This document shows, piece by piece, positions 1 to 30,026 of a stretch of DNA of 64,000 bases. Source of the stretch: Escherichia phage DCP548; sequence record PQ671645.1. One strand, written 5' to 3'. The first letter of the stretch is position 1; each line of letters starts with the position of its first letter. The translations under genes were made by a program, and so were the position numbers. The notes beneath the pieces are model-generated. The model saw nothing but the letters and a program-made list of their open reading frames with translations, was not told the DNA's origin and made no database searches.

Positions 1-762
1 AATCTTGAGGACGAACAAAACGAGTTCTCAACCAGTTAAATGGGTCTGTATCACGAGCTTTAATACAGTGCTGCATAGGATATCCGTTTAAGGATTTAGC
101 ATCATCAGCTGTAACATCAGTACTATGGAAAATATAGCAAGAGTCACGATAGCTACAATGTGTTGTATACCCTTTACCAGCATTAGAACAGAACTCATTT
201 ACAAGAACTTCAAATATTATATTGTTCTTATTACAAAACTCTGCTGCACGCTTCAGGAAAGAAACTGAACGGTTCTTATGAATTCCACAGCAGACCTTTT
301 TGATATTATATTGGTCGTGCAAGTATTTGATTTGAGTTACAGCATCGACATGTAGAATTGTTGAAACTTCAATCTCAATGTCTTTATTGACTTCACGAAC
401 AATTTCCATAACAACAGGGTTAGCGATAGTAATACGCCATACGCCTATTGACCAAAGATACTGAACATAATCCTGAATAGCTTTCTTCTTCCACTCAACT
501 AGTTCTCTTTTTGAACCAGGATTTATCGTGTTGAGTGTATAGTTAAAGCAAATACCTAATTCGTTACAACGTTTAACGTAATCTTCTAACATCTTTTTGT
601 CAACGTCAGGAAGCCTAAAATCAGGTCTGGCTGCTACAAAAGCCATTTCTCTTGTAGAGCCGTATACTTCATTTATCAAGCTATTAGGATAAGTTTTATT
701 GAGCTCTACGATTTTATCAAGAAGAGCTAAATCAAAATTCGTTCCGATTTTAAAGGTATTCA
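1..762 (-). CDS. U32-family-like protein, N-terminal 254 aa only (C-terminus lies beyond the window start)
   Basis: Minus-strand ORF from ATG at 762 running off the window edge. Motif pattern YTLNT ... EVSTILHVD ... C-x-n-GKGYTTHCSY resembles U32 (YhbU/RlhA/TrhP) proteins by memory. Confidence 0.45.
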
Positions 763-817
763 TTTTTGCATCTCGCGTTAATTGTTGCGATGGTTTTTGC
801 AGGTCTTACTTAAATTA

Positions 818-1219
818 TTATAGATTCGGTTTATATGATTTAAATGTTTCGAATTCGCCTTTATTCATAAGAGCTTTGAATTCGTCAGGACGCATAGCTT
901 TGTCGTCGATAATCCAATCATATACTGGTTTATGTGTTAGCAAATTATGGTACTTCAAGCCAATGTTTGCCAAGTTCTGAATCAGACTTGGGAGAATGTC
1001 AATTGCTATACGGCCAGGACCTACTGACTTCATACCGCGAGCAGTGTAAAGCGTTATTGTATGCCCTGCATCATACAGGGCATTAATGGCAGACACCATT
1101 TCGACGTCTGGTTTGAAGTTCACGTAATCACGATTGTTATTCCACTCTGTTATACAATCATCGACATCAAAACAAAGATTAAGCATGTTTTCTACACGGT
1201 GCATTAGATTCGTTCCCAT
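818..1219 (-). CDS. HAD-superfamily phosphatase (KdsC/GmhB-like sugar-phosphate phosphatase)
   Basis: 133 aa. Motif I CFDVDDCIT (DxD), conserved K, and DD motif (WIIDDKA). Confidence 0.55.
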   Translation of the reverse strand: MGTNLMHRVENMLNLCFDVDDCITEWNNNRDYVNFKPDVEMVSAINALYDAGHTITLYTARGMKSVGPGRIAIDILPSLIQNLANIGLKYHNLLTHKPVYDWIIDDKAMRPDEFKALMNKGEFETFKSYKPNL

Positions 1220-2889
1220 TGATGAGTGATATCGCCACCGATTGGACGATAGGAAACACCAGTTTCTTTATCAGTTAGTACCCATTTACCAGGATTTTTT
1301 GTAATCAGAGTAGCCGTTACAGGTTCTGCTACGTCATAACTAATAGAGCCGTCCTGAAGTACACGGCCCATGTTACGTAATTGCTTAGTCAGAAGTTCCA
1401 TACCTTTATAATATGCGGCTACCGCTTTAAGTGGATTATTCTTGAAATAACCACCTAATGCAATCCAGATAATTGCCACTGCCAAATGATGATACTCGTT
1501 AAACGAACTCATCTTTCCATATTTGTAAACTAATGGATTGATGTTAATAGTCACATTACAAGTTGTTTCATCAATAGTAAATTGCCCCCAGGTCGGATTA
1601 GCATTGAATTCATCATAACCTGAAACAGCATAAAGCACTTTAGCTTCATCATACAATTTTGGCCCATAAATCTTGGTTTCGCCAAAATATCCACGAGGGT
1701 CGATAAACTTGACTTCACCATTATCAGTAATCATAGTATTACTAAAGTTCGGGTCACCATGAATAACAGAGTACTGTCCCTGAGAACGGTTATGATAACG
1801 AATAAGGTGTTCTAAAGCTTGTTTCAGCATTGGCTTCAGACGCCCAATCTTAGTGTAGTTCACATGTGTGATTTTACCAAATGAATCAATCAATGGTTGA
1901 ATACTTTCACAACGATCAATAACTTTCGTATAGAACTCTTTAGTGAAATCACGACGAACAGTTTCAGGACTTACAAAATAAGTGTCTGTGCTGAATTTCA
2001 GTGCGTCTAAAATTGCATCAACAATTTGTGGACGAGCAAGACTTGATTTGGATTTAATATATTCAAATGCCGGCTTACCTTTAATGCGTTCCATTTCAAA
2101 GTTATTTTCATTAACAGAAACTAACTGAGGAACTGAATCTGATTTCACTTTAAGATACCATGAAATCTCATCTTTCTGAAGAGCTCGGCCCTGTTCGGTT
2201 AATGCGAATTTAGTTACAGTTTCTTCACCGATTTCAACTGCATTAAAACTACGATTAAGTTCACGAACTTCATGAGCCTTTTCAAGTTTAGGCATATCAC
2301 CTAAATCAATTAGATTCATAAGCTCTGATTTATTGAATGCGCTGCCGTAAAGGAATTCTACGAAATCACGTCCTTTGCAGTATTCATGAATTTCCTCATC
2401 AGTAGAACCCATATAGAATTCCCAGTCTTTGAACTGATAAATTCCTACAACATTACCACCTGTTGAACCTACGTTAGTGATATTTTCACCGTCGAAATTA
2501 TATCGACATTCGTCACCCTTAACATAGATTGCGTTAACATTCCAAGACCATGAACCAAAATCGGGAATAATATCACACCAGTTAACAATTACATTATGGC
2601 CGTCTAAATCTTTGTGCAATTTAGCAAGAGCATAAGCAGAACCATATGCTTCATCAACTGTACGAATAGTCACATTGAACCCTTCTTGCTCACAATAAGC
2701 TCGAACAGTTTCAGCAAATTTTGAATGAACTACTACAATAATTTCGTCTGCGCCAAGGTCAGAATAAATTGTATACAAATTGCTCAGAATAGTGTCTTGT
2801 TTATAGTTAACAAGCACCTTAGGAATATGATGCGTTATTGGATACAAACGAGTTGCCAGTCCAGCACCAAGAATAACAGCTTTTTTCAT
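1204..2889 (-). CDS. Bifunctional sugar-1-phosphate nucleotidyltransferase (N-terminal) / APH-ChoK-like kinase (C-terminal)
   Basis: 561 aa. N-terminal ILGAGLATRL nucleotidyltransferase signature; C-terminal HGDPNFSNTMI ... IDPRGYFG Brenner-type kinase motif. Confidence 0.6.
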   Translation of the reverse strand: MKKAVILGAGLATRLYPITHHIPKVLVNYKQDTILSNLYTIYSDLGADEIIVVVHSKFAETVRAYCEQEGFNVTIRTVDEAYGSAYALAKLHKDLDGHNVIVNWCDIIPDFGSWSWNVNAIYVKGDECRYNFDGENITNVGSTGGNVVGIYQFKDWEFYMGSTDEEIHEYCKGRDFVEFLYGSAFNKSELMNLIDLGDMPKLEKAHEVRELNRSFNAVEIGEETVTKFALTEQGRALQKDEISWYLKVKSDSVPQLVSVNENNFEMERIKGKPAFEYIKSKSSLARPQIVDAILDALKFSTDTYFVSPETVRRDFTKEFYTKVIDRCESIQPLIDSFGKITHVNYTKIGRLKPMLKQALEHLIRYHNRSQGQYSVIHGDPNFSNTMITDNGEVKFIDPRGYFGETKIYGPKLYDEAKVLYAVSGYDEFNANPTWGQFTIDETTCNVTININPLVYKYGKMSSFNEYHHLAVAIIWIALGGYFKNNPLKAVAAYYKGMELLTKQLRNMGRVLQDGSISYDVAEPVTATLITKNPGKWVLTDKETGVSYRPIGGDITHQWERI

Positions 2890-3070
2890 GTTGTGGTCCT
2901 CATTGGTAAGTAGGAGTATTGTACACTATTCTAGTTAAAGCATTCATACTTTGCTTGTAGTCCAATCATAATCCATCCAATTACAAGTGTTGGAATCATT
3001 ACCGGAGCCGTTAAGCTCCAGTAGATAGTCATGACAAGCATCAATAGTAAAAGTCCTATTGTTATTGCTT

Positions 3071-3706
3071 TCATTGTTCGCCTCGTAACATGGCACCTAG
3101 TGCACCGCCAGGGTGGAACTTAAGGAAATCATTAGAGGTAAATCCACGTTCAGACGAAAGGTTGATAGCAAACGTATCGATAAGCGCTAACAACAATGTA
3201 GTGGACATTGTCGGAGCTAAAGAGTTCTCGTCAACTTCTACAGCGATACCGGTACAGAACGTATAATCAAAAAGAGCTTCGTATTCTTGTGGAATGTCAG
3301 GGTTACAATGCAACAGAATCTGTTTGACGTTCGGACGAATCATTTTAAGATGCTTAGCCACGCCTATCATTTCTTCAGTTTTACCAGAACGACTAATATG
3401 AATCAACACATCATTAGGCGCAATGAATCCTGCATCACCGTGAGAATAATGCCCGGTGTTCAAGTACATACTCGGGATACCGAGTGAAGCAAATGTCTCA
3501 GAAGCTTTAGTTGCGATATTAGCGTTCTTACCAACACCTGTAATAATTACACGACTTTCATAATTACTAAGTCCAGGGCGTCGAAGAGTTTCTAGAATAG
3601 CATTATAACGAGCAGGGTTTTGACTAATTACTTTGGCCATAGCGGCCAAAGAAGAAGCTTGTTTTATGATTGCGTCAATAGCGATAGTAATAGGAGTAGT
3701 TTTCAT
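3071..3706 (-). CDS. D-arabinose-5-phosphate isomerase, SIS domain only (KdsD/GutQ/KpsF-like, no CBS pair)
   Basis: 211 aa. Block-for-block resemblance to the KdsD SIS domain: TFASLGIPS, HGDAGFI, ISRSGKTEE, LAPTMSTT, FHPGGALG. Confidence 0.7.
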   Translation of the reverse strand: MKTTPITIAIDAIIKQASSLAAMAKVISQNPARYNAILETLRRPGLSNYESRVIITGVGKNANIATKASETFASLGIPSMYLNTGHYSHGDAGFIAPNDVLIHISRSGKTEEMIGVAKHLKMIRPNVKQILLHCNPDIPQEYEALFDYTFCTGIAVEVDENSLAPTMSTTLLLALIDTFAINLSSERGFTSNDFLKFHPGGALGAMLRGEQ

Positions 3707-3746
3707 ATTTCTCTCATTTAATTAGTTTACCGTCCATGTCATTATA

Positions 3747-6458
3747 TCAAAAATCGAACATATCGAATAGAGATGCTTTCTTCTCGTAATCGAGTTTCGC
3801 TGCTGATGTGAATCCTTCAAGTGGTTTAATAAATGTCTTCTCAAGGAGAACAGTGTAGTCCATCCAATGAAGTACGTCGTCTTTAATTAAATCTGTGATT
3901 TCAGTACCAGAAGGCCATGCGATACATTTATCACCGAATGGGTTTCCTTCGCGTAAAGGCAGAACATATACTTTTTCACCTTCTACAACTTGCGGTGCAT
4001 CGATATTACCTTTGATAGCCCGGTTATACGTCAGAATTCCACGAATATGGAACGGGCATTTGGGACCAGGGAATCCACCTACATCATATTTAGCAATGTT
4101 ATTCGCAGAAGATACCGACGCGATGCTAATATAATTCAATTGACGGAATTCTTTTTCAAACTCTTTAAAATATTCTTGTAATGATTCTTCACCTTCTTGA
4201 AGCATACGACGAATACATTCTTTAAGAGCTTTCTGTACTGCTTTAGGAGTCGAAGATTTCTGAGTCTCTAGACCCATGATTTTGAGTTTAGGCTCAGCGT
4301 AACGAGTACCTTCCATATCCCACACGTTTAATGCATAACGTTTCTTACCAGTCCAGAATCCACCAATACCTTTAGAACCGAGTGGAGGACCAGCGATAGC
4401 TTCTCGGTCCATGAACATTAAGTGTTGTTTATTGTTCATGTATTCACACATTTCACGGAAACCTCTATCAATAGCTGGTTCCATACGTTCACGTGCAAAC
4501 TTATCTAAGAAGTCTACCCAATGGTTGGTATCACGGAATTTAGATTCACCAACCTTATCGATAATTTTATCAGCAGATACGTAAATAGAGTCTGTATCAC
4601 CATAAAGAACGAAAGCTTCACCTTCTGTGCCACAAACTTCATTCAGATATTCATTAACTTTACGTTCAATCCACTGTAAAGCCATTTGACCAAATGTTGT
4701 GATTGCAGTAGCATTACGCAAATCATAATAACGAAACCAAACGTTGCCAAGTGCACCATAAAGTGAGTTGATAAGCAATTTACGGTTAATTTGGGCAGTC
4801 ATACCTGCAACTTCAGTACGTTGAGCTCTAAACAACATTTCATTAAGAGATTTAGCAGACAACTTTTTAATCTTTTCTTTAATCTCATCGCTGAAGTCGA
4901 AACGATAATCAACATCTAATGGTTCGTCAACAGAAAGATTAGGATTATGCAATGCCTCTTTAATTATTTCACCATTACGTTGAGCTGCAAGCATGTAACC
5001 TTTATGTTCTTTACGTTGATTAAAGACCTTAGTGATTTCAGTTGGAACTACACCATCACGGTCTTTATAATACATCATGCCGTTAGGAGAACAACTGTAC
5101 ACATCAGAAGGACGTTCAGCAACAGCGTTAATATAATCATGCAATGGAGCTACTTTAAACGTTCCTGCTATTGTTTCTGGGCTAATATTCACTTGGCGAA
5201 TAATACTTGGATACAGAGATGTAAGGTCGAAACTCATTACATATTTGTATCGATTTGGAATAGGTTCCTTAACAAAAGCGCCGGGATAAGGTTGAACCGG
5301 GTGAGAACGACCTTGTGGAATCACCTTGTTCTGCTCTTTAAGGCTATTAAAAATAATAGCATCCCATGTTTTAATTGGGCTAAACACAGATTGAATCTGT
5401 ATCTTAGCATAATAACCCATGTCCAAACTCAAGTTGATGAACTGACGCTTAGCATCAATTTGCAATACACGATACACATCGATAATGTTATAAGAAATAT
5501 ATCGTTGGTGATTGCTTTCACGAAGCTTAGAAATAGGGCCGTCATATTTCAGTTTACCAACGTTCAATTCAAATTCTGAAATGTAATCCAGAGAATATGA
5601 CGGCTGATTGGTAAAAGAGAATTTTTTGTAAAGGTCAATGTAATCAAGAACAGAGATACCGAATAATGTAATGATTTCACGAGAACCATACATGTTTTCG
5701 ATAACTTTAACACGAGTTTTACGATGTGGTGATAAACGTTTCGCAGTAGATTCGCCAAAAATATTCTTGATTCGGTTATACACATATGGAATATCAAATG
5801 ACTCAACGTTCCATCCAGTCAAAATGACAGGAGTTTTCTGTTGCCAGAAGTTGAGATATTCCATCAACAATTCTTTTTCGTTATCGAACGGCATATAAAT
5901 GATTTTATCGATAATTTCGGATGGAACTTCATCACCGCCTTGTTCTTGAAGCTTAGCAGCGATTTCAATAGACCATTCTTCTACATTACCATATGGAGAA
6001 TTCAATAGATCAAATACGTAGAACCTGTCGTCAATTGAGTCATAATGGGTGATAGCATCAATCGGATGTTTTGCTTGTGACGGCTCAGGGAACCCATCTG
6101 GAGATGTTACTTCGATGTCGAAGTTAGCCACACGAATTTTTGTATGGTCGTATTTGATTTCATAGTTATAAGTGTCAGACAAATACGCCAATTTGAAATC
6201 GTCCATGCCAAGTGCTTCAAGTCCGATATCTTCCATGCGTTTAATCCATTGTGAGGCATCACGCATATTGGCGAACAACTTACGAGTACACGGCTTACCG
6301 TAGATATCGAAATATTTCGTAGCCTGACTTTCTGGACAATGAGCAAACAGTGATGGTTTATATTCTACTTCACGAGTACGTTCACGGCCGTTAGAATCGA
6401 TGTAACGTTCAAAAATTGAATCACCAATCTGTTCAACCGTTAAGTAAAATTCTTTCAT
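3747..6458 (-). CDS. 43: DNA polymerase (family B)
   Basis: 903 aa; recognisable T4/RB69 gp43 sequence with exonuclease and polymerase motifs (FDIE, YGDTDS). Confidence 0.97.
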   Translation of the reverse strand: MKEFYLTVEQIGDSIFERYIDSNGRERTREVEYKPSLFAHCPESQATKYFDIYGKPCTRKLFANMRDASQWIKRMEDIGLEALGMDDFKLAYLSDTYNYEIKYDHTKIRVANFDIEVTSPDGFPEPSQAKHPIDAITHYDSIDDRFYVFDLLNSPYGNVEEWSIEIAAKLQEQGGDEVPSEIIDKIIYMPFDNEKELLMEYLNFWQQKTPVILTGWNVESFDIPYVYNRIKNIFGESTAKRLSPHRKTRVKVIENMYGSREIITLFGISVLDYIDLYKKFSFTNQPSYSLDYISEFELNVGKLKYDGPISKLRESNHQRYISYNIIDVYRVLQIDAKRQFINLSLDMGYYAKIQIQSVFSPIKTWDAIIFNSLKEQNKVIPQGRSHPVQPYPGAFVKEPIPNRYKYVMSFDLTSLYPSIIRQVNISPETIAGTFKVAPLHDYINAVAERPSDVYSCSPNGMMYYKDRDGVVPTEITKVFNQRKEHKGYMLAAQRNGEIIKEALHNPNLSVDEPLDVDYRFDFSDEIKEKIKKLSAKSLNEMLFRAQRTEVAGMTAQINRKLLINSLYGALGNVWFRYYDLRNATAITTFGQMALQWIERKVNEYLNEVCGTEGEAFVLYGDTDSIYVSADKIIDKVGESKFRDTNHWVDFLDKFARERMEPAIDRGFREMCEYMNNKQHLMFMDREAIAGPPLGSKGIGGFWTGKKRYALNVWDMEGTRYAEPKLKIMGLETQKSSTPKAVQKALKECIRRMLQEGEESLQEYFKEFEKEFRQLNYISIASVSSANNIAKYDVGGFPGPKCPFHIRGILTYNRAIKGNIDAPQVVEGEKVYVLPLREGNPFGDKCIAWPSGTEITDLIKDDVLHWMDYTVLLEKTFIKPLEGFTSAAKLDYEKKASLFDMFDF

Positions 6459-11866: not shown

Positions 11867-12083
11867 CCATTTTAAGAATAGAGCCAGGAGTATCGTTGTC
11901 CATTATATTAAAGCTAAATTCAATAGCCCAGTCGGTGCAGACATGAACTGCTTTAACTTCATTGCCTTCAACGCGTAATGGCTCAATCCAATACTTGATA
12001 GTGTTCTCGAATCCATCATCATCTTTAACGTCCATTTCAACTTCAAGCCTGAGTCCAGCATTGTTAAATTCATCTAAAGTCAT
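11826..12083 (-). CDS. Hypothetical protein (46.2 position)
   Basis: 85 aa ORF. Confidence 0.4.
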   Translation of the reverse strand: MTLDEFNNAGLRLEVEMDVKDDDGFENTIKYWIEPLRVEGNEVKAVHVCTDWAIEFSFNIMDNDTPGSILKMVEACIKDAYNDEN

Positions 12084-13099
12084 TGTGTTGCCTCAATATA
12101 AAGTTCGTTGGAATATTTGACCAGCGCTTCTCTGTCTTCGTCTGAGATATCTGGAATCGCGTCAATATATTCTTTAATGATATCTTGAAGTGATTTAATC
12201 TCGATTTCCTGGTCGTCATCAGATTCAACACTGTTATCAACTTTAGAAACCATACGAAGAGAGTGAACTACTTTTTCAAGTTCAGATTCAAACTTAGTCA
12301 ACTCTGAATCAATTTCTGATACTATAACACGTACGGCTAGATTAGTATAATCAGAATAATTGATTTTGCCTTTAAACGGATAAGTGATTCGTCGATGCCA
12401 TGTTGTTTCATTAGGAATAAATTCCATACGTTCAACATCGGTGTCAAATACCCAGAATCCGCGCGGGTCGTTTTCATCACCTGCAGTAAGGGTCCATGGT
12501 GTCCCAATATATTTGACGTTAGCAGCTTCAGAGATTGTGTGGAAGTGGCCAGACCAGACTTGTTTATAGGTCTTTAAGAAATCAGGTTCAAGCCCATGAG
12601 ACTTCATTCCTTTATAGAAATAAAAACCATTCAGTTCCCAGTGCCCAACACAAAAAGAAGCAGATGAAGTTTTGATATGTTCAAGAATTTCACCAGTATT
12701 TTCTTCGCACATCCAAGGAATTAAATCAATCAAACATCCGTCAAAATCTACTGTAGTAGGCTTATCGTATACTTTAACATTAGGATATTTAGCTAAAAGC
12801 TCAGTAGAAGCGTTTGGAGTTAAAGTATTTTTAAAGTGCATATCATGGTTTCCTACAACAGTATGTAGGGTAATACCAGCATCATCAAGCATTTGAACTA
12901 TTTCACGTGCGAACTCCATAGTTTTATGCGTGATTGCTTTTCGCACATCAAAAATATCGCCGTATTGAATCCATGTAGTAATTCCATTTTTCTTAGAATA
13001 TTCTATCGCCTGCTTAATTCCATCCAACTGAATGGATTGAACCCACTCATCATCGGCTTTAACACCTAAATGCCAATCACCTAAATTTAAAATTTTCAT
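12080..13099 (-). CDS. 47: Recombination endonuclease subunit (SbcD/Mre11-like phosphoesterase)
   Basis: 339 aa; calcineurin-like motifs (LGDWH, GDIFD, GNHD). Confidence 0.92.
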   Translation of the reverse strand: MKILNLGDWHLGVKADDEWVQSIQLDGIKQAIEYSKKNGITTWIQYGDIFDVRKAITHKTMEFAREIVQMLDDAGITLHTVVGNHDMHFKNTLTPNASTELLAKYPNVKVYDKPTTVDFDGCLIDLIPWMCEENTGEILEHIKTSSASFCVGHWELNGFYFYKGMKSHGLEPDFLKTYKQVWSGHFHTISEAANVKYIGTPWTLTAGDENDPRGFWVFDTDVERMEFIPNETTWHRRITYPFKGKINYSDYTNLAVRVIVSEIDSELTKFESELEKVVHSLRMVSKVDNSVESDDDQEIEIKSLQDIIKEYIDAIPDISDEDREALVKYSNELYIEATQ

Positions 13100-13143
13100 A
13101 TTATTTCCTCATTAGTTAATTCATTCTATCATCCGTTTATAAA

Positions 13144-13171
13144 GCAAAAAAAGGAACTCCGAAGAGTTCCT
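13144..13171 (-). terminator. Rho-independent terminator (8-bp stem, UUCG loop, U-run) on the minus strand
   Basis: Minus strand aggaactc-TTCG-gagttcct followed by ttttttt. Confidence 0.6.
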
Positions 13172-13343
13172 ATCCACATAGTACACCGTACAGAGGCTCA
13201 TTTGAACTTTTAAATCGAATGGGCTTGTATGTAATAGTTCCTTCGGCTTTAGCTTTATCATAAGACTCTTTAAAACGTCTCATTCTTTCTGCTTTGCCTT
13301 TACGGATTTTATCGAAATTTTCAGAAGTCGGGATGTTCGTCAT
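13170..13343 (-). CDS. Hypothetical small basic protein (57 aa, below the ORF-track cutoff)
   Basis: ATG-initiated ORF read by hand (MTNIPTSENFDKIRKGK...); ends at the terminator hairpin. Confidence 0.3.
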   Translation of the reverse strand: MTNIPTSENFDKIRKGKAERMRRFKESYDKAKAEGTITYKPIRFKSSNEPLYGVLCG

Positions 13344-13382
13344 GCATAAGCACCTCTCAGAAAATGCCTAAATCGATTTCTC

Positions 13383-13604
13383 TCATCGTTTCCACCATTT
13401 CTTAACTTGAAATGAATCGACCCACACGAGTTGTTTTGGGTCTGCCTTTACAATAGGCGGACAAATTTCTGTAATAGAACCGTCGTGATATTCCTTTTCG
13501 GAAATTTTAACACAAAGAGGACCTCCCAATTTAAGGGTGAATCCTGCGTTCAGATTAAGACGTTTAAACTTTGTTTGAACTAGCGCCATTAATGATGTCC
13601 TCAA
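13383..13604 (-). CDS. Hypothetical protein
   Basis: 73 aa ORF; start uncertain. Confidence 0.3.
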   Translation of the reverse strand: MRTSLMALVQTKFKRLNLNAGFTLKLGGPLCVKISEKEYHDGSITEICPPIVKADPKQLVWVDSFQVKKWWKR

Positions 13605-13887
13605 TAGCCTGACGAGTAGTAACCCACTGGATTTTAATTAACTTGTCATTATATGGTTGTCGTAGAATATCCCGAGATTTCTTAATAGCATATTCGTAAG
13701 CTTCGAAGTTGTTTTGAATTGCTGCTTCTTGAGCATGAGCATAAAGACGGTTTAGCTCAAAACGATTCTTTTTAAGAATCTTTTCGGATTTTTTACGTGC
13801 TTCAGCTTCATTTTTCTTTTGGATTTCTTGTAGCATTTTAGCTACTGCATCTTCTGCTTCTTTATTTTCAATAATCTCGGTAGTCAT
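13564..13887 (-). CDS. Hypothetical protein
   Basis: 107 aa charged helical ORF in the interval where T4 carries a-gt. Confidence 0.4.
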   Translation of the reverse strand: MTTEIIENKEAEDAVAKMLQEIQKKNEAEARKKSEKILKKNRFELNRLYAHAQEAAIQNNFEAYEYAIKKSRDILRQPYNDKLIKIQWVTTRQAIEDIINGASSNKV

Positions 13888-13888
13888 A

Positions 13889-14104
13889 TTATCTCATTAA
13901 ATTAAAATAAAAACGTCCATCCTCTTCAATACAGAACTCATACTCAACCGGAGTCCCATTTATCGAAAATGACACGTCATGTGGGTTCAAAGGGTCGATG
14001 TCAAAATTAATTTTAAATTCACGACCCAACAGTTTTACCAAATAAGGGATTGCTTCGTCAAAAGGTTCTTCTAAGTAGTTAGAGATGTCAATTGTCATCC
14101 TCAT
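13889..14104 (-). CDS. Hypothetical small protein
   Basis: ORF 13889..14182 trimmed to the internal Met because it overlaps gene 55. Confidence 0.3.
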
Positions 14105-14645
14105 ATAAAAAATCCAAACTAGGCGAATCGCTAACAACTTCCTTCTTTTCAGCCCCAGGAGCTTTATAAGCGGATTCTTCATAATGCGTCATTTTATCGT
14201 AGATGTCTTGAATAAACGTTTCATCTACCAACGCTACCATATCATCGTCATGACTGTCGTAGACGTTATGAACGAAGTAACTATATTTCTTTGCAACTTC
14301 CTTACGCTCTTTTTTGATACGTTGGACAAAAGCATTAAAACAAGCTCGAGTTATGTATGCATGTGGGTTATTGTACTTAGTTTCGTCGAAATTATGAAGT
14401 CCCTTAATAGAGGCTTCAATCCCATCTGCAATCATCTCCTGCTTCCAAGACTGGGTATATCCTGAAAAGTTGAAACGTTTGGACAGGCCTTCGGCGATAA
14501 GCATAATTGCTAAACCGATGGTATCATTCTGACGAATAATTTTGTTTGGGTCTTTATTATTTAAGAGCTCCTTTTTCCACTCGATTATAGCGGCGAGAAG
14601 CTCTTTATTATTCACATAGTTATTTTTAGGTTTTTGTTCAGTCAT
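14088..14645 (-). CDS. 55: Late-transcription sigma factor
   Basis: 185 aa; near-identical to remembered T4 gp55 ([52 protein letters not shown]). Confidence 0.95.
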
Positions 14646-18079: not shown

Positions 18080-18550
18080 TTAATCATGTTTCCACACCCC
18101 ATCGGTATTTGACCAAAGTCGCTGATTATCTGATCCTCGCCACAGTTTTTTGGTCGGAAGATTTTTCTCATACTTCCCATCAATAATAACATCAACATAT
18201 TTAAGCATTTCTAGTTGTTTAATATCTTCAAACTTATATCCTGTCCACAACCAAATGCTTTTATTGGGATAAAGATTTTTTACTGTTTGAGCAATGCAAT
18301 GAACAACATCTCTGTTATCGGGATAGAGAGGGTCTCCTCCAGTTATAGTTAATCCTTCTATATAATCATTATTCAAACATTCAATTAATTGCTCTAGTGT
18401 TTCACCCGTGAATGGAATACCATTTCTAGCGTTCCATGTTGATTTATTATAACACCCTTCGCATTTATGCAAACAACCTGTAACGAAAAGAACGACCCTG
18501 CAACCAGGGCCATTCACAAAATCGCAAGGATAAAATCTATCATAATTCAT
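18080..18550 (-). CDS. nrdG: Anaerobic ribonucleotide reductase activating protein (radical SAM)
   Basis: 156 aa; CxxxCxxC cluster (GCLHKCEGC); T4 NrdG-like. Confidence 0.92.
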   Translation of the reverse strand: MNYDRFYPCDFVNGPGCRVVLFVTGCLHKCEGCYNKSTWNARNGIPFTGETLEQLIECLNNDYIEGLTITGGDPLYPDNRDVVHCIAQTVKNLYPNKSIWLWTGYKFEDIKQLEMLKYVDVIIDGKYEKNLPTKKLWRGSDNQRLWSNTDGVWKHD

Positions 18551-20364
18551 TGGTGTTTAACCCTATGCATGATTTCTTTATTTTTGCCGAGATTAAATCC
18601 GCGTTCGTTAGGATTTCCAAGATAACCGCATGTTCTTCTTATGGTGTTCATCTTTTTAGGGTCAGTTTCTCCACAAATAGAACAAACAAATCCGGTTTCA
18701 GTAGGAGTCATTTCATGAGTACTTCCACATGTAAAACATTTATCTACTGGCATATTAACACCAAAATAATCTAAATGTTGTGCAGCATAATCCCATACAG
18801 CCTCAAGACCTTTTAGGTTATTTTTCATATCAGGAAGTTCAACATAAGAAATATGTCCGCCAGTCGCAATGAAATGATATGGGGCTTCGCGAGAAATCTT
18901 TTCAAACGGAGTGATATTTTCTTCTACTGAAACATGGAAACTATTAGTGTACCAGCCTTTATCAGTAACATCTTTTACACTTCCATATTTCTCGGTATCA
19001 AGTTTACAGAAGCGATAGCACAGGTTTTCAGCAGGAGTAGAATACAAGCTAAAAGCAAAACCGGTTCTTTCAGTCCACTGCTTAAGACGAGCATTCATTT
19101 TGGTCAAAATTTCCTGTCCAATATCACGTCCGACAAGAATATTCAATTCGTGAATACCAATGTATCCTAAAGACACTGAACTTCTACCGTTTTTAAATAA
19201 CTCAATTATATCGTCATCAGGTTTAAGACGAACCCCAAATGCACCTTCTTGGTAAAGAATAGGAGCAACTGTTGCTTTAACACCTTTTAAAGAACTAATT
19301 CTACACATCAAGGCTTCAAAACACAGATCCATTCGTTCATTAAATAGCTCATCAAATTTCTGTTCATTGAATTGTGTTCCAATATAAGAATCTAACGCAA
19401 TACGAGGAAGATTCAGTGTTACAACACCAAGATTATTACGTCCATCAAGAATTTCATTTCCAGTCGAATCTTTCCATACACTCAAGAAACTACGACAACC
19501 CATTGGAGAAACAGGAATAGATGAACCAGTGATAGCTTTATTGTTCTTAACTGAAATAATATCAGGATACATTCTTTTGCTTGCACACTCTAGAGCAAGC
19601 TGCTTAATATCATAGTTCGGGTCGTCTTTATAAAGATTGACACCCTCTTCAATGAACATAACAAGTTTAGGGAAAATAGGAGTTATTCCATCACGACCAA
19701 GGCCTTTAATGCGGTTTTTAAGAATTGCTTTCTGAATAATTCGTTCAGTCCAGTCAGTTCCAGTACCAAATGTAATTGTTACAAAAGGCGTTTGACCGTT
19801 TGAGCTAAAAAGAGTATTTACTTCATACTCATAAGCTTGAAATGCATCGTATACGTCTTTTTCTGTTTTAGATTGGGCGTAATTCAACGCATCAGCGATT
19901 TGCCATTTTTCTGCATCCTCAATATGTTTTGCATAGGTGCGTTTAACATAAGGAGAAAGTACTTTATCTACATTAGCAAAAGTCGTTCCGCCGTACTGAT
20001 GTGAAGCAACCTGTGCGGTAATTTGTGCCATAATTGCAGTAGCAACACCAATCGATTTAGGCGTTTCAATTTGAGCATTGCCTAATTTAAATCCATTCTC
20101 AAGCATCCCCTTTAAATCGACTAAACAGCAATTAGTAAATGGAAGAGCAGGGGAATAATCAATATCATGGAAATGGATAATTCCGCTTTCATGTGCTTTC
20201 ATAATAAAAGACGGGACCATATTTTTGGCAATGTGCTTAGACACAATACCAGCCATAAGGTCCCGTTGAGTTGGAAAAACACGAGAATCTTTATTAGCAT
20301 TCTCGTTCAAAAGATCTTTATTAGTTTTATGAATTAATCCTTCAATTTCTTTTTCAATTTTCAT
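18547..20364 (-). CDS. nrdD: Anaerobic ribonucleoside-triphosphate reductase
   Basis: 605 aa; C-terminal glycyl radical motif RRTCGYLG and zinc ribbon CFTCGS...CSICG. Confidence 0.95.
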   Translation of the reverse strand: MKIEKEIEGLIHKTNKDLLNENANKDSRVFPTQRDLMAGIVSKHIAKNMVPSFIMKAHESGIIHFHDIDYSPALPFTNCCLVDLKGMLENGFKLGNAQIETPKSIGVATAIMAQITAQVASHQYGGTTFANVDKVLSPYVKRTYAKHIEDAEKWQIADALNYAQSKTEKDVYDAFQAYEYEVNTLFSSNGQTPFVTITFGTGTDWTERIIQKAILKNRIKGLGRDGITPIFPKLVMFIEEGVNLYKDDPNYDIKQLALECASKRMYPDIISVKNNKAITGSSIPVSPMGCRSFLSVWKDSTGNEILDGRNNLGVVTLNLPRIALDSYIGTQFNEQKFDELFNERMDLCFEALMCRISSLKGVKATVAPILYQEGAFGVRLKPDDDIIELFKNGRSSVSLGYIGIHELNILVGRDIGQEILTKMNARLKQWTERTGFAFSLYSTPAENLCYRFCKLDTEKYGSVKDVTDKGWYTNSFHVSVEENITPFEKISREAPYHFIATGGHISYVELPDMKNNLKGLEAVWDYAAQHLDYFGVNMPVDKCFTCGSTHEMTPTETGFVCSICGETDPKKMNTIRRTCGYLGNPNERGFNLGKNKEIMHRVKHQ

Positions 20365-26158: not shown

Positions 26159-26686
26159 TTATGCGTGAACCGTCTTTAAACGTTCTTCAAATTTCCGAAG
26201 AGTACTAATACGTTCTGCTTTCTGTTTTGTATAGTTTGCAATACGTTCTGAAGTGAGAGCGTATCGTTCATTTACTGTTTCTTTCATGAAGTCAGGGATT
26301 TCACGAGAAGCTTTAATTTCGTCAAACTTGTCGAGTACTGCCTGGTCTTCAGCGATTAAATTTTCGTACATCTCGATATCTTTCTTGATAAACTCGATAT
26401 CTTCCTGGGTTACTTTGGATAAACGAGATGCTTTATCCTTTTTGTACTGCTCGTTAGTTTCACGAGACCAGAATAATGTACGTTTTTTGTTAGTGTTTTT
26501 GTAGACTTCCACAATTCCAACTGAATCGATGATAGCAATCCAATTCCAGCGAGATTTGAAAATCTGACCTCCGTCCACGGTAATCTCGTTACCATAAGCA
26601 ACGTCATTAAAGAACTTGCTTTGTGCTTCAGATTTAAATTTACCGTCGTTATAATTTACCAGGTTGAAAATATCTTTAGCGTTCAT
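26159..26686 (-). CDS. Hypothetical protein
   Basis: 175 aa ORF. Confidence 0.4.
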   Translation of the reverse strand: MNAKDIFNLVNYNDGKFKSEAQSKFFNDVAYGNEITVDGGQIFKSRWNWIAIIDSVGIVEVYKNTNKKRTLFWSRETNEQYKKDKASRLSKVTQEDIEFIKKDIEMYENLIAEDQAVLDKFDEIKASREIPDFMKETVNERYALTSERIANYTKQKAERISTLRKFEERLKTVHA

Positions 26687-26744
26687 GTTTTACCTCCAGT
26701 AGTTGATAGGTCTATAATAACATAACTATAGACCTTGTAAACAA

Positions 26745-27032
26745 CTAAAAGAAACTTTTTTCGGTATTTTTTCCACTGAACCAAACAGACTTCGGGATTT
26801 TTTGTAATTTTTCAGATTTAAGTTTCTCTTCCTGTTCTTTCTTATATACACCCTTGTCGTACTGGAGCATCTCTATGGCATTCTTTTGCAAATGATCTAA
26901 GGTAATTAAGGCTTTAGTTTTTCCTTTCAAGGAAGAGTCCTGGCGAACCTCCTCGCTATATTGCATCGTAGAACTAATCATACGATGAGCATAGAGTTCA
27001 ACTGCGGCTTTAATTTTTTGCATAAAATCCAT
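26745..27032 (-). CDS. Hypothetical protein
   Basis: 95 aa ORF. Confidence 0.35.
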   Translation of the reverse strand: MDFMQKIKAAVELYAHRMISSTMQYSEEVRQDSSLKGKTKALITLDHLQKNAIEMLQYDKGVYKKEQEEKLKSEKLQKIPKSVWFSGKNTEKSFF

Positions 27033-27170
27033 AACATATCCTCTTTGATTTGTACATCATTATTTTTAAATATTTCTATGCCCTCAGTAGGTTCCTAGTG
27101 TCCTTCTTTGAGGTAAGCCATATGATTATTCATCTTTATGGCTTTTGTTACCTCAGAACTTCCTATAAGC

Positions 27171-28172
27171 TTATTTCAGTAAAGTTACTTCAGAGATTTC
27201 CTCCCAACCATCTTTATCAGTTGAAATAAAATCTGCTACATAAAGAGCCGTACGTAATGATACATTGCGAAGACGAGATACGTTAGCCTTCATCCAGGAC
27301 AATGCTTTATACGTTTCTGCATCCGTCAGACCACGTTTCTGCATCATGTCAGTAGATAATATTACGTCTTCAACTCGAACCATAATCTCTTCATTAGAGT
27401 GTACTCCAAGATCGAGATACACTGAACGAGATACTAAAGCTTGAAGGTGTGGGGCAAGTTTCGAACCGCGTTCTAACTCTTTATCGATATCAACGTTTGT
27501 AATGAAAACGATAGTACCTTCAAACTCAAATTCTTTATCAATACCCTTATCATCGAGATAAGATGACGCAGTGCTCCAACAAACTTTGCGTTTATCTCCA
27601 GTATCTAATGCTGCTTTAAGAAGGTTCAAGATGTCCATATCTGAGAATACGTCAACGTCGTCGATTAAGAGAACGCTGTCTGCATCACGGTTGAGCCAAA
27701 GTTGTTCGTAAAGGCCAATACCAGAGATTTTACCATTAATGCTTTTGTATTTGATGAAACCATTATCATTAGCATTATTAAGTGCTTTATCCAGAGAATA
27801 CGTCTTACCAATACCAGCTGCACCTGAAATAATGAGTGAACGAATTTTGCCATCGATAATGCCATTCGTCATCATGTTCATTACTTTAAAGCGTTTGTTG
27901 ATACGAGTTTTCATATCTTCAGTGCTTTCAACAACTGCAACTGGTGACGTCTCAACTCCTTCCATTACGATGTCTGATTTGAAGACCCATACTCCACGTT
28001 CAGAACCATCAATCATAACGAAAATTTTACCATCACCTAAGTGGGAACATTCAGGATTAAGCTTTGCCGGGAACCAGGTCTTTGTGGCAACATAAGAACC
28101 AGAGATTTCGTTATTACGATAGATACCTTTTTTGATTTGAACGTTGAACATTTTATTCTCCAATTTACTCAT
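27171..28172 (-). CDS. P-loop NTPase (AAA-like ATPase)
   Basis: 333 aa; Walker A GAAGIGKT and Walker B LLIDDVD. Confidence 0.5.
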   Translation of the reverse strand: MSKLENKMFNVQIKKGIYRNNEISGSYVATKTWFPAKLNPECSHLGDGKIFVMIDGSERGVWVFKSDIVMEGVETSPVAVVESTEDMKTRINKRFKVMNMMTNGIIDGKIRSLIISGAAGIGKTYSLDKALNNANDNGFIKYKSINGKISGIGLYEQLWLNRDADSVLLIDDVDVFSDMDILNLLKAALDTGDKRKVCWSTASSYLDDKGIDKEFEFEGTIVFITNVDIDKELERGSKLAPHLQALVSRSVYLDLGVHSNEEIMVRVEDVILSTDMMQKRGLTDAETYKALSWMKANVSRLRNVSLRTALYVADFISTDKDGWEEISEVTLLK

Positions 28173-28268
28173 TTCGTTTCGATAGGTCTATAATAACATA
28201 TCCTAAAAGCATGTACACCACTTTTTTAAATATTTTAACCCCCTAAAGGGACCCGAAGGTCCCCACAT

Positions 28269-28535
28269 TTACTTATCGCACTTAGCAACATAATTAGGCA
28301 TATCACAGAATACGGAGCGAGTAACTACTCGGCCCTTTGACCATGCTTCAGTTGCTTGTCCGGCGGTGCTATTAATATAGCTTGATCTAATGTTCTCAAT
28401 ACCCTGAGAATGTGATGCATTTACCGAACCATTAGAAGGCCCAGAAGACTGGTTACCACCAGCTCCTGCACCCGTGGTAGCACCAACAGAGAATGCCATC
28501 ATTACTGCGAATAAACCAATTACTAATTTTTTCAT
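28269..28535 (-). CDS. Small secreted protein
   Basis: 88 aa; N-terminal signal peptide (MKKLVIGLFAVMMAFSVGA); G/S/N-rich. Confidence 0.4.
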   Translation of the reverse strand: MKKLVIGLFAVMMAFSVGATTGAGAGGNQSSGPSNGSVNASHSQGIENIRSSYINSTAGQATEAWSKGRVVTRSVFCDMPNYVAKCDK

Positions 28536-28566
28536 ATTTACCTCAAGTTAATGGTTATTTATCTAC

Positions 28567-29556
28567 TTATTTATAGTAAGAATTATGATTTTCGAGATAG
28601 ACTTGTTCAAGGAAATCATCCCAGAAACTCATATCTACTTTTTGTTGCATACCGTTCTTGGCAGCTTGTTCTGACGCATGTTCAACTTGGTCGACGATAT
28701 CTTCTAGGAATTCTTGTACAGTTTTAAACGTATGTTTACCGAGCTTAACATCGAGAATAAATGGAGCATCCTGAAGTGGGTAAACCAGGTCGCCGGTTTT
28801 ATAAATTTCTAATAGTTGAAGTCCACCACGACATGCATGACTCAATGCTTTCCAATCAATACCTTCGTTAGCTTCTGCCTTACGAGCACGTTCGCCATAG
28901 TTCTCTTCTAGTTTAACCAGGATGGCATTGAACTCTTTATTGGTTAATGTGTCTTGGAATTTACGGTCTAACAGATTATAGAATGTTTGCTTACCTGTTT
29001 TCTCGTTTTCGGTTTCAACCCATGAAGCAAATTCACCTACAGGCAGAACATTCTTCATATGTGATAAACGAATTACTGCACCATTATCAAAGTATTGTCC
29101 CCATTCATTAGAACGTTTAAGGGCTTGACGAAGAACAGCCAGTCGAGAACCCTTGACACCGTATTTAGAAGCTTGCTTACGGACATACCCTAAATAAGAT
29201 TTCATGTTAGTGGTATAGAAACGAGACCTGTTATCTTGAATATACTTCCATACATCAGGCAAATCAGATTTAACTACTAAACTTGGTGGAGTGTGAAGCA
29301 TATCTAATGCGACGGTTTCACCATCTGCAGCTAATTTAAAGAAATATTTGAGACTATACAACTCGTGGTCCACGTCGTCTTTTGTATTCTTAGAAGATGT
29401 GTTATTCGTGTTCTTGCTCATATGTTCTTTAACGTTACCGGTCAAAATATCACGAGCATGAGGGACATAAATTTCTTTAAAATCGACGTCAGATTCAGGA
29501 GTAGACGTTCCATAAAGGTGGCTACCAAAGTAGCCTTTCATAATTGTTTTCATCAT
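28567..29556 (-). CDS. Nucleotidyltransferase-fold protein (Pol-beta-like minimal NTase motif)
   Basis: 329 aa; N-terminal GS-x10-DVD signature (YFGSHLYGTSTPESDVDF). Confidence 0.45.
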   Translation of the reverse strand: MMKTIMKGYFGSHLYGTSTPESDVDFKEIYVPHARDILTGNVKEHMSKNTNNTSSKNTKDDVDHELYSLKYFFKLAADGETVALDMLHTPPSLVVKSDLPDVWKYIQDNRSRFYTTNMKSYLGYVRKQASKYGVKGSRLAVLRQALKRSNEWGQYFDNGAVIRLSHMKNVLPVGEFASWVETENEKTGKQTFYNLLDRKFQDTLTNKEFNAILVKLEENYGERARKAEANEGIDWKALSHACRGGLQLLEIYKTGDLVYPLQDAPFILDVKLGKHTFKTVQEFLEDIVDQVEHASEQAAKNGMQQKVDMSFWDDFLEQVYLENHNSYYK

Positions 29557-30026
29557 TTAGCCTTATATTCAAGAGTAGGACAGACTTTTTCTTTACGAGC
29601 TTTAAGGTATTCGCCTATTAATGATTTCTTACGTTCAATAGGTTCAAGTCCATTTTTAATTCGTTCTTGGTTTTGTGCAATGAGCTCAATTTCTTTATAA
29701 TATTTTCTGTCGTTATATTTGTCTAACAACCAAGACGGACCAATTACCAACCCGGTAGCAATAAAAGCCATGACTGCTACCATTAAAATGCCTACGCCAA
29801 TTGAGGCCGGAACTAATGTCCATAGACTACTAAAAACAAAGAATTTAGTTAAAATTTCCTGGCCAATGATTGTGACTGCTGCTAAAATCGCAAATCCAAT
29901 AATTGAAACAGCCAATACCGGGATTAGCGTTTTCCAAAAATAAGCACACAACGTTTTCGGACGATTCCATGTACTATTGAACGCGGCATAAATTTTAAAG
30001 TGCCAAGAGTTTTCATTGATAATCAT
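29553..30026 (-). CDS. Membrane protein
   Basis: 157 aa with several hydrophobic helices. Confidence 0.4.
   Translation of the reverse strand: MIINENSWHFKIYAAFNSTWNRPKTLCAYFWKTLIPVLAVSIIGFAILAAVTIIGQEILTKFFVFSSLWTLVPASIGVGILMVAVMAFIATGLVIGPSWLLDKYNDRKYYKEIELIAQNQERIKNGLEPIERKKSLIGEYLKARKEKVCPTLEYKAK

Follow-up and report, generated by a model that had tools for sequence, protein, structure and literature searches.

The window analysed here is a stretch of 64,000 nucleotides of Escherichia phage DCP548 (sequence record PQ671645.1) that begins within the DNA-hypermodification module of an RB69-type phage (genus Mosigvirus). Taken together, the minus-strand genes at its positions 1 to 3,706 are very probably best explained as genes of a uridine diphosphate (UDP)-arabinose pathway accompanied by a U32-family protein, the homologue of RB69 gp50, which would stand outside the sugar route as a hydroxylase independent of molecular oxygen (O2). 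The sugar pathway is already published, and the locus represents a known system without unusual features, found here in one more isolate from this group of phages; the hydroxylase lead may be new. The more specific proposal, that gp50 is an O2-independent, prephenate-dependent 5-hydroxylase of deoxycytidine monophosphate (dCMP) or of a related pyrimidine deoxynucleotide, was drawn from genomic context and is given about an even chance.

Location and gene content of the module

Bases 1-3800 of the window share 98.6% nucleotide identity with Escherichia phage JS09 (genus Mosigvirus), and at least 80% of this query is covered by a single match in 152 phage records, mostly RB69-like coliphages. 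The window is oriented along increasing RB69 coordinates (ORF050c at 26,495-27,652 and ORF052c/053c at 28,097-29,780 in RB69) and, as traced via JS09, its gene order at the locus is fully syntenic with RB69 ORF045c-055c. The cluster lies between gene 43 and uvsX, the position occupied by imm/42/beta-gt in T4, so that the synteny argument made in an initial annotation of the sequence holds. The four genes which that annotation placed on the minus strand upstream of the DNA polymerase gene were all recovered there by the list of open reading frames (ORFs) and by profile searches, together with a 47-residue ORF that it had overlooked:

1..763, minus strand: U32-family protein (RB69 gp50), N-terminal 254 of 386 residues, the gene being cut by the window edge (PF01136)
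818..1219 (818..1204 if the later start is used), minus strand: AfhF-type HAD phosphatase (RB69 gp51; identity to PDB 9iqw, TIGR01689, motifs)
1204..2889, minus strand: AfhE-type bifunctional enzyme of 561 residues (RB69 ORF53_52c; tblastn, PHROG 4098)
1339..2259, minus strand: APH/choline-kinase-like kinase domain of the same enzyme, about residues 211-517 (motifs, PHROG 21938)
2563..2883, minus strand: nucleotidyltransferase core of the same enzyme, residues 3-109 (PF00483, signature motif)
2931..3074, minus strand: hydrophobic ORF of 47 residues (RB69 ORF054c homologue; ORF list, PHROG 3610)
3071..3706, minus strand: SIS-only D-arabinose-5-phosphate isomerase of 211 residues (RB69 gp55 homologue; profile and PDB matches, motifs)
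3747..6458: DNA polymerase, the minus-strand cluster being placed upstream of its gene (ORF list)

The left half of the module, which comprises ORF049c and the genes for a ThyA-like hydroxylase, a glycosyltransferase and a Tmk-like kinase, lies outside the window and is present in JS09, in which the synteny of the 43 to uvsX module (ThyA-like 5-hydroxy-dCMP synthase, glycosyltransferase, Tmk-like kinase) was observed. Neither the JS09 glycosyltransferase (JS09_0137) nor the Tmk-like kinase nor the ThyA-like protein had a tblastn match in the 64-kb window, and the first transferase gene of JS09 starts about 1.4 kb past the left edge. The transferase is therefore outside the window, as had been anticipated. 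The expected absence of an alpha-glucosyltransferase between genes 47 and 55 was likewise borne out:

12080..13099: gene 47
13100..14087, minus strand: position of alpha-gt in T4, here with the small a-gt.2 to a-gt.5 ORFs only (ORF list, JS09 annotation, Pfam)
14088..14645: gene 55

A scan of window positions 1-4000 for promoters and terminators gave numbers of sites no higher than chance.

The UDP-arabinose route

Arabinose has been found on the DNA of RB69, in which ORF052c and ORF053c were shown to be one gene of 561 residues and in which ORF53_52c and ORF055c were proposed to serve UDP-arabinose synthesis within the 43-uvsX module (Thomas et al. 2018, PMC6024577). The DNA of RB69 and of Acinetobacter phage DLP3 carries mono- to poly-arabinosylated 5-hydroxycytosine, the bridging oxygen of which derives from 5-hydroxy-dCMP, the product of the ThyA homologue RB69 gp48; the isomerase was assigned to gp55, the kinase and uridylyltransferase to gp52:53, and the phosphatase to gp51 (Lee et al., NAR 2026, PMC13326640). 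As related in that paper, AfhE of HY126 is a D-arabinose-5-phosphate kinase that yields arabinose-1,5-bisphosphate and AfhF is a Mg2+-dependent phosphatase acting on this bisphosphate (He et al. 2026, Nat Chem Biol, via PMC13326640); Mahler et al. 2025 is cited there among recent work on arabinosylated phages. By Lee et al.'s account, the activities of the fused enzyme and of the phosphatase and the identity of the base have been shown by others.

Searches of the four proteins against Pfam and NCBIfam, proposed as a check in the initial annotation, support each of its family assignments, that of the kinase half by motifs, with Pfam scores below threshold. The isomerase was described there as KdsD-like and devoid of CBS domains, which agrees with its profile matches: 41.2 bits for Pfam SIS and, in NCBIfam, 79.9 bits for GutQ, 107 bits for KdsD and 112.7 bits for KpsF/GutQ, the last two confined to the SIS portion of the models (positions 47-202 of 328 being matched, and the 112.7 bits falling short of the curated full-length cut-off of 203.7), while profile searches of the protein found no CBS pair. 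It further matches PHROG 5670, "arabinose 5-phosphate isomerase", with an E value of 2e-116, contains GVGKN and HPGG motifs, and has as best PDB sequence matches 3etn, 5uqi and 2xhz, all of which are arabinose-5-phosphate isomerases. A heptose specificity of the GmhA type, which had been named among the findings that would overturn the arabinose reading, was rejected on these best matches and on the lack of any match of the protein to the GmhA family at E<=0.01 in NCBIfam. Homology thus predicts the step from ribulose-5-phosphate to arabinose-5-phosphate.

The claim of a small HAD phosphatase is supported by a match to TIGR01689 (49.3 bits), by the motifs DVDDC, TAR and K..DD, and by PDB 9iqw, chain A of which is 100% identical to residues 6-133 of the window protein. 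Two starts are available to this gene: an ATG at 1219, which gives 133 residues and a 16-nucleotide overlap with the fused gene, and an ATG at 1204, used in the JS09 annotation, which gives 128 residues and an ATGA-type overlap. The match to 9iqw begins at the residue encoded by the latter, which is likely the true start. The ThyA-like protein of JS09 is near-identical to PDB 9iqc, 9ir2 and 9iqu, and these entries, like 9iqw, appear to be structures from the HY126 work. Because the biochemistry of HY126 was done on a protein sequence identical to that of the window phosphatase (9iqw), the core of the sugar finding is already known.

The predicted fusion of a nucleotidyltransferase with an APH-type kinase was confirmed as a single ORF of 561 residues, 100% identical to its counterparts in JS09, PhAPEC2 and others and 99.6% to that of RB69 (tblastn), with a PHROG 4098 match over its full length. 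Its N-terminus matches PF00483 (NTP_transferase) with 39.1 bits (cut-off 21.2), and GAGLATRLYP at residues 8-17 fits the G-x-G-x2-T-R-L-x-P signature; NCBIfam families of sugar-1-phosphate nucleotidyltransferases and PDB 1jyk were also matched by this core. In the kinase domain, residues 211-517 of which are covered by PHROG 21938, the Brenner motif HxDxxxxN is present as HGDPNFSN (residues 377-384), followed by a metal-binding Asp (DPRG, residue 397). All Pfam matches of this domain were sub-threshold (Fructosamin_kin 17.1, EcKL 16.2 and RIO1 16.1 bits); its reported structural matches are 3ham and 6hwl (PMC13326640, Table 1).

From these assignments, the SIS protein would convert host ribulose-5-phosphate into D-arabinose-5-phosphate, which the kinase half of the fused enzyme would phosphorylate at C1 to arabinose-1,5-bisphosphate; the HAD phosphatase would then take off the 5-phosphate to leave arabinose-1-phosphate, from which the nucleotidyltransferase half would make UDP-arabinofuranose. 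Glycosyltransferases encoded outside the window would attach the arabinofuranose to 5-hydroxycytosine in DNA, the 5-hydroxy-dCMP coming from the ThyA-like enzyme, which requires flavin and O2 and whose gene lies immediately beyond the left edge of the window. The activated-arabinose pathway of the initial annotation stands for the isomerase, the HAD phosphatase and the fused enzyme, as published (PMC6024577, PMC13326640), and probably fails for the U32 protein as a member of it. Similarly, arabinose in place of glucose agrees with the literature on RB69 DNA, and the acceptor is 5-hydroxycytosine instead of the hydroxymethylcytosine that had been proposed (PMC13326640).

The order of steps also had to be corrected. 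In the initial annotation the HAD protein dephosphorylated arabinose-5-phosphate to free arabinose, which the kinase then phosphorylated at C1 ahead of conversion to nucleoside diphosphate (NDP)-arabinose. Domain content is compatible equally well with this sequence of events. The kinase-first order nevertheless mirrors the GmhA/HldE/GmhB heptose pathway, as is generally known, and the HAD protein of the window is identical in sequence to 9iqw, a solved structure. Moreover, the phosphatase-first order, which Table 1 of Lee et al. retains, is superseded in their text, in which AfhE is given as an arabinose-5-phosphate kinase and AfhF as acting on the bisphosphate, so that the order as reported there runs from arabinose-5-phosphate through arabinose-1,5-bisphosphate and arabinose-1-phosphate to UDP-arabinofuranose (PMC13326640); dephosphorylation as the first step is regarded as improbable. 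Even less credible is a role of these genes in making a heptose, 3-deoxy-D-manno-octulosonate (KDO) or capsule precursor that would alter the host surface and not the phage DNA. Such a role would suit the RefSeq labels "phosphoheptose isomerase" and "capsule biosynthesis protein", the match of the HAD protein to the TIGR01689 capsule phosphatase subfamily and the KpsF-like character of the SIS protein. It is opposed by the best matches of the latter, which are to arabinose-5-phosphate isomerases with none to GmhA, by the embedding of the cluster among genes for a 5-hydroxy-dCMP synthase, a deoxynucleoside monophosphate kinase and DNA glycosyltransferases, and by the arabinose present on RB69 DNA. 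Besides the printed table, two points weigh against the route as drawn here: UDP as the nucleotide was deduced by Lee et al. from glycosyltransferase homology, and the step order rests on their account of He et al. 2026 and Mahler et al. 2025 (PMC13326640). Nothing in this analysis contradicts the sugar route.

Public names for homologues of the genes in 1-3706 vary between records and are frequently erroneous. "Phosphoheptose isomerase" and "capsule biosynthesis protein" both appear for the HAD protein, "peptidase" for the U32 protein and "GlmU" for the fused enzyme, and in record PQ480333 the sole features at the position of the fused enzyme are a "dCMP deaminase" and a "homing endonuclease". 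The value of the sugar finding lies in a correct call made blind and in a prompt to mend poor database labels.

The 47-residue ORF (MKAITIGLLLLMLVMTIYW...), strongly hydrophobic, sits between the SIS gene, the end of which it overlaps by 4 nucleotides, and the gene for the fused enzyme. It matches PHROG 3610 (unknown function) with 94 bits; an ORF054c-like gene is annotated in this position in JS98, and the RefSeq record of JS09 leaves the ORF unannotated.

The U32 protein and its proposed role

Assignment of gp50 to the U32 family is upheld by PF01136 (Peptidase_U32), which the full-length JS09 homologue matches with 42.2 bits and the fragment in the window with 28.7 bits, both above the cut-off of 22.4. 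An AlphaFold2 model (predicted local distance difference test score, pLDDT, 91.2) has the U32 TIM-barrel fold, and its top PDB fold in Foldseek is a U32 protein, 5d88 (TM-score 0.70). This entry is uncharacterised and is followed by generic TIM barrels, with no solved U32 hydroxylase among the matches listed; a sequence search of the PDB with the U32 protein gave no match. Ten cysteines are invariant among the homologues, including a C-terminal C-x4-C-x3-C-x2-C motif, and E190, C192, C203, C209 and C233 are invariant in 20-30 of them. The best profile match among the E. coli U32 paralogues is RlhA (hhalign with a single sequence, probability 79.9%, E 1.4e-5), the sole usable one by this method; in that alignment the invariant E190, C203 and C209 fall on RlhA E161, C169 and C176, which are essential there. 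RlhA is needed for 5-hydroxycytidine at C2501 of 23S rRNA, and TrhP for the prephenate-dependent, O2-independent formation of 5-hydroxyuridine (ho5U) at position 34 of tRNA, TrhO being the O2-dependent alternative; RlhA and TrhP both require a Glu and two Cys of their U32 motif (PMC6599085). UbiU/UbiV are Fe-S proteins of anaerobic ubiquinone hydroxylation, with prephenate as oxygen donor (PMC10990095).

Among phage records, 221 contain the U32 gene; their listed host genera (Escherichia, Klebsiella, Shigella, Serratia, Proteus, Yersinia, Enterobacter, Providencia, Edwardsiella, Pectobacterium and Shewanella) are facultative anaerobes without exception. An AfhE-like gene was found in 373 records, 57 of them from Acinetobacter phages, none of which (0/57) has U32; the cluster of Acinetobacter phage Maestro is one without it, and the gene table of DLP3 also has none, yet this phage makes mono- to tri-arabinosylated 5-hydroxycytosine (PMC13326640). 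Across T4-like genera, U32 is the protein of the module with the highest identity to JS09 (83-89%, against 74-83% for the ThyA-like protein, 42-73% for the AfhE-like enzyme and 51-72% for the glycosyltransferase). In Enterobacter phage Entb_45, a chorismate mutase of 79 residues (PF01817, 40.9 bits, cut-off 27) is encoded by a translationally coupled gene between those for U32 and the ThyA-like protein, overlapping the former at its end and the latter at its start. The same gene, annotated in nearly all cases beside a thymidylate-synthase-like gene, is present in 51 phage records that span about a dozen host genera.

Beyond the T4-like phages, U32 homologues at 45-58% identity form a large metagenomic family, of which about 28 viral loci made up the divergent set. 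The neighbours of these genes encode dCMP deaminase, thymidylate-kinase-like kinases, uracil-DNA glycosylase (UDG), dUTPase/DCD, the deoxyribonucleotidase NT5C, deoxynucleoside kinase, a TAGT-type DNA glycosyltransferase and UDP-galactopyranose mutase. Two operons recur, one with a Tmk-like kinase, a glycosyltransferase homologous to RB69 gp46:47 and U32, the other with a glycosyltransferase, SIS, an AfhE-like enzyme, a KdsC-like HAD protein and U32. In seven loci (L030, L034, L040, L043, L051, L012 and L035) the kinase, the glycosyltransferase and U32 occur without arabinose genes. A variant of the second operon includes a fusion of 3-deoxy-D-arabino-heptulosonate-7-phosphate (DAHP) synthase with chorismate mutase (125 and 64.9 bits); this fusion gene stands just upstream of U32 in four viral contigs unrelated to one another, with no gene but that of the KdsC-like HAD protein in between.

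Within 6 kb of U32, no ThyA-like 5-hydroxy-dCMP synthase was found in the divergent loci by phmmer, by a custom hidden Markov model or in a Pfam tally of 85 neighbouring proteins; the sole Thymidylat_synt match (243.6 bits) looks like an ordinary thymidylate synthase. A collection-wide scan recovered the ThyA-like enzyme on T4-like contigs and on none of the contigs with divergent U32. A recurrent protein of 220 residues upstream of U32 was considered as a hidden ThyA-like enzyme and rejected, being instead a KdsC-like HAD phosphatase (DCDGVxTDG, GDSxSD). In cellular genomes, the subfamily occurs 8 times among 100,044 species genomes, always in anaerobe-associated taxa: two Romboutsia, Lachnospiraceae, Erysipelotrichales, an unclassified Bacillota metagenome-assembled genome (MAG), Tannerella, Phocaeicola faecalis (a cultured isolate) and candidate division BRC1. 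At two of these eight loci, the genes beside U32 include a glycosyltransferase, AfhE-like, HAD, kinase or chorismate mutase gene, and at none of the eight was a ThyA-like gene found.

Three patterns can be distinguished: phages of a strict aerobe have the ThyA-like enzyme without U32, anaerobe-associated taxa and their phages have U32 without the ThyA-like enzyme, and phages of facultative anaerobes have both. Together with the two independent ways in which chorismate mutase is brought in, these patterns are as would be expected if the ThyA-like and U32 proteins were two analogous enzymes for the same step, one O2-dependent and the other prephenate-dependent. According to this proposal gp50 would make 5-hydroxy-dCMP, or a close relative of it, without O2, with prephenate as oxygen donor, in the manner of RlhA, TrhP and UbiU/V. 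Enteric T4-like phages would thereby possess an aerobic (ThyA-like) and an anaerobic (U32) route to one modified base, and many phages of strict anaerobes would rely on the U32 enzyme alone, often with a chorismate mutase or DAHP synthase-chorismate mutase of their own for the supply of prephenate. The window also encodes an anaerobic ribonucleotide reductase:

18547..20364, minus strand: anaerobic ribonucleotide reductase NrdD (PF13597, 568 bits; Gly_radical, 89.8 bits)

With NrdD, the phage is equipped for replication free of O2, where an O2-dependent 5-hydroxy-dCMP synthase cannot work. NrdD is ordinary for T4-like phages.

Several observations weigh against the hydroxylase proposal. BLASTP of the phage protein against UbiU, RlhA and TrhP of E. 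coli gave no significant match, and hhalign matched it only poorly to TrhP and UbiU. The Glu/Cys motif falls in a different register depending on the method, hhalign placing phage E190/C203/C209 on E161/C169/C176 of RlhA and MAFFT instead giving E185/C192. JS98-type E. coli phages carry the pathway without U32, and Mosigviruses, this phage included, lack the chorismate mutase, in the slot of which they have the 53-residue ORF049c. The scans for a ThyA-like enzyme extended no further than 6 kb to each side of U32 or were limited to near homologues of the known enzyme, and the binning of MAGs may err over phage contigs. Finally, co-occurrence of U32 with AfhE, SIS and glycosyltransferase genes also fits a sugar-related role.

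That role, for instance as a sugar or heterocycle reductase or an epimerase of the arabinose pathway, is the most substantial rival for gp50. The gene lies inside the cluster and adjoins AfhE-like, SIS and HAD genes in many divergent contigs; the Bas46 annotation reads "putative enzyme involved in UDP-arabinose biosynthesis", and Table 1 of Lee et al. lists RB69 gp50, without discussion, as "sugar or heterocycle reductase" (PMC13326640). Yet Acinetobacter phages do without it (Maestro cluster, DLP3 table), DLP3 arabinosylating 5-hydroxycytosine all the same, and the seven operons with kinase, glycosyltransferase and U32 contain no arabinose genes. The neighbours dCMP deaminase, dUTPase/DCD, Tmk, NT5C and deoxynucleoside kinase point to nucleotides, the recurrent chorismate mutase points to prephenate, and the characterised U32 members are linked to hydroxylation (PMC6599085, PMC10990095); membership in the sugar route is for these reasons held unlikely. 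As for a genuine peptidase (collagenase-like PrtC), the Pfam family name and the word "peptidase" in dozens of records would favour it. The ten invariant cysteines are instead consistent with Fe-S binding, RlhA, TrhP and UbiU/V are linked to hydroxylation instead of proteolysis, and the gene context is one of nucleotide and DNA-modification genes, which leaves this reading scarcely any weight. The prephenate-dependent hydroxylase proposed for gp50 is absent from the literature covered by a full-text search, in which no paper ties a phage U32 protein to cytosine hydroxylation, He 2026 and Mahler 2025 being outside the search; the discussion of Lee et al. notes other pyrimidine hydroxylation pathways for tRNA without a link to gp50 (PMC13326640).

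If the proposal is true, a U32 hydroxylase would for the first time be placed in DNA-precursor metabolism, and prephenate would for the first time be seen to serve a virus as oxygen donor, which would extend prephenate-dependent hydroxylation chemistry to DNA precursors and explain a widespread and very conserved phage gene. The gene could also be used to recognise phages of strict anaerobes with glycosylated 5-hydroxypyrimidines in their DNA, which is relevant to restriction evasion, phage therapy and gut virome sequencing. Since the known 5-hydroxy-dCMP synthase needs O2 and these phages infect gut bacteria and encode NrdD, the question raised, which is directly testable, is how cytosine becomes modified in them when O2 is absent.

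Further observations concern the slot of the chorismate mutase and individual loci of the divergent set. RB69 ORF049c (L001:8445-8606 in JS09, about 0.4-0.6 kb left of the window) occupies this slot, in which most other T4-like phages with U32 carry the chorismate mutase; that it might be a degenerate chorismate mutase was rejected, with no CM_2 match obtained and with both genes coexisting in some (Yersinia) phages. Proteins of 550-606 residues in three loci (L036:1243-3060, L045:1237-3057 and L048:1354-3006) are apparent fusions of a thymidylate-kinase-like domain with a gp46:47-type glycosyltransferase, which suggests that the two steps are tightly coupled. In two metagenome contigs (L007 and L008) and in the Bacillota MAG (L096), U32 occurs with the NT5C deoxyribonucleotidase, a PnuC-like transporter, a deoxynucleoside kinase, a radical SAM-SPASM protein, a second, faint U32-like protein and a nucleoside 2-deoxyribosyltransferase-like protein, a cluster that looks like nucleoside-level modification or salvage. 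The operon of L012 (6001-12179) and L035 has the Tmk-like kinase, the glycosyltransferase, U32, a TAGT-type glycosyltransferase (33.9 bits), dUTPase/DCD, two unknown genes and UDP-galactopyranose mutase; this content suggests galactofuranosylated hydroxypyrimidine DNA, produced from a locus that has no ThyA-like enzyme close by. In L050, a SAM methyltransferase (4590-5543) is encoded one 154-residue ORF upstream of a 40%-identical U32 homologue and may, by analogy with the conversion of ho5U to 5-methoxyuridine (mo5U) in tRNA, indicate 5-methoxy-pyrimidine chemistry.

Comparison with known systems

The closest system is that of HY126 Afh and of RB69 gp51, gp52:53 and gp55, with which the window shares genes, order and neighbours; there is no substantial difference from HY126 Afh, the window holding only part of the module. 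In comparison with KdsD, KpsF and GutQ, which provide its best family and PDB matches, the window isomerase has the same SIS catalytic domain with the GxGK and HPGG motifs; it differs by the missing C-terminal CBS pair and by its score below the cut-off.

Biosynthesis of adenosine diphosphate (ADP)-heptose by GmhA, HldE and GmhB employs a SIS isomerase, a bifunctional kinase-nucleotidyltransferase and a HAD phosphatase that acts between the two HldE-type steps. The logic of the window route is identical, the HAD protein removing the distal phosphate of a 1,n-bisphosphate, with a pentose as substrate; with the step order corrected, the route thus amounts to a pentose copy of that of GmhA/HldE/GmhB. 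Its enzymes are nonetheless of other kinds, the SIS domain being KdsD-like and not GmhA-like and the fused enzyme combining an APH/choline-kinase-like kinase with an RmlA/GlmU-like nucleotidyltransferase in a domain order opposite to that of HldE, as the latter is generally known.

With gene 42, alpha-gt and beta-gt of T4, the module has in common the 43-uvsX slot and a strategy in which dCMP is modified and incorporated and the DNA then glycosylated. The base is 5-hydroxycytosine, whereas that of T4 is 5-hydroxymethylcytosine, and the sugar is arabinofuranose from a phage-made donor, with no alpha-gt in the slot between 47 and 55.

For gp50, the systems to compare are RlhA, TrhP and UbiUV. 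Shared with them are the U32 Pfam family and TIM-barrel fold; the conserved Glu/Cys motif and further invariant cysteines of the phage proteins may correspond to theirs, and the genomic link of the U32 genes to prephenate supply may reflect a common donor. The phage protein belongs to a very divergent subfamily with the additional C-terminal C-x4-C-x3-C-x2-C motif, and its presumed substrate is a deoxynucleotide (dCMP), whereas RlhA, TrhP and UbiUV act on RNA or quinone. The pairing of TrhO with TrhP, and of UbiIHF with UbiUV, would be paralleled in these phages by that of the O2-dependent ThyA-like enzyme with the U32 protein.

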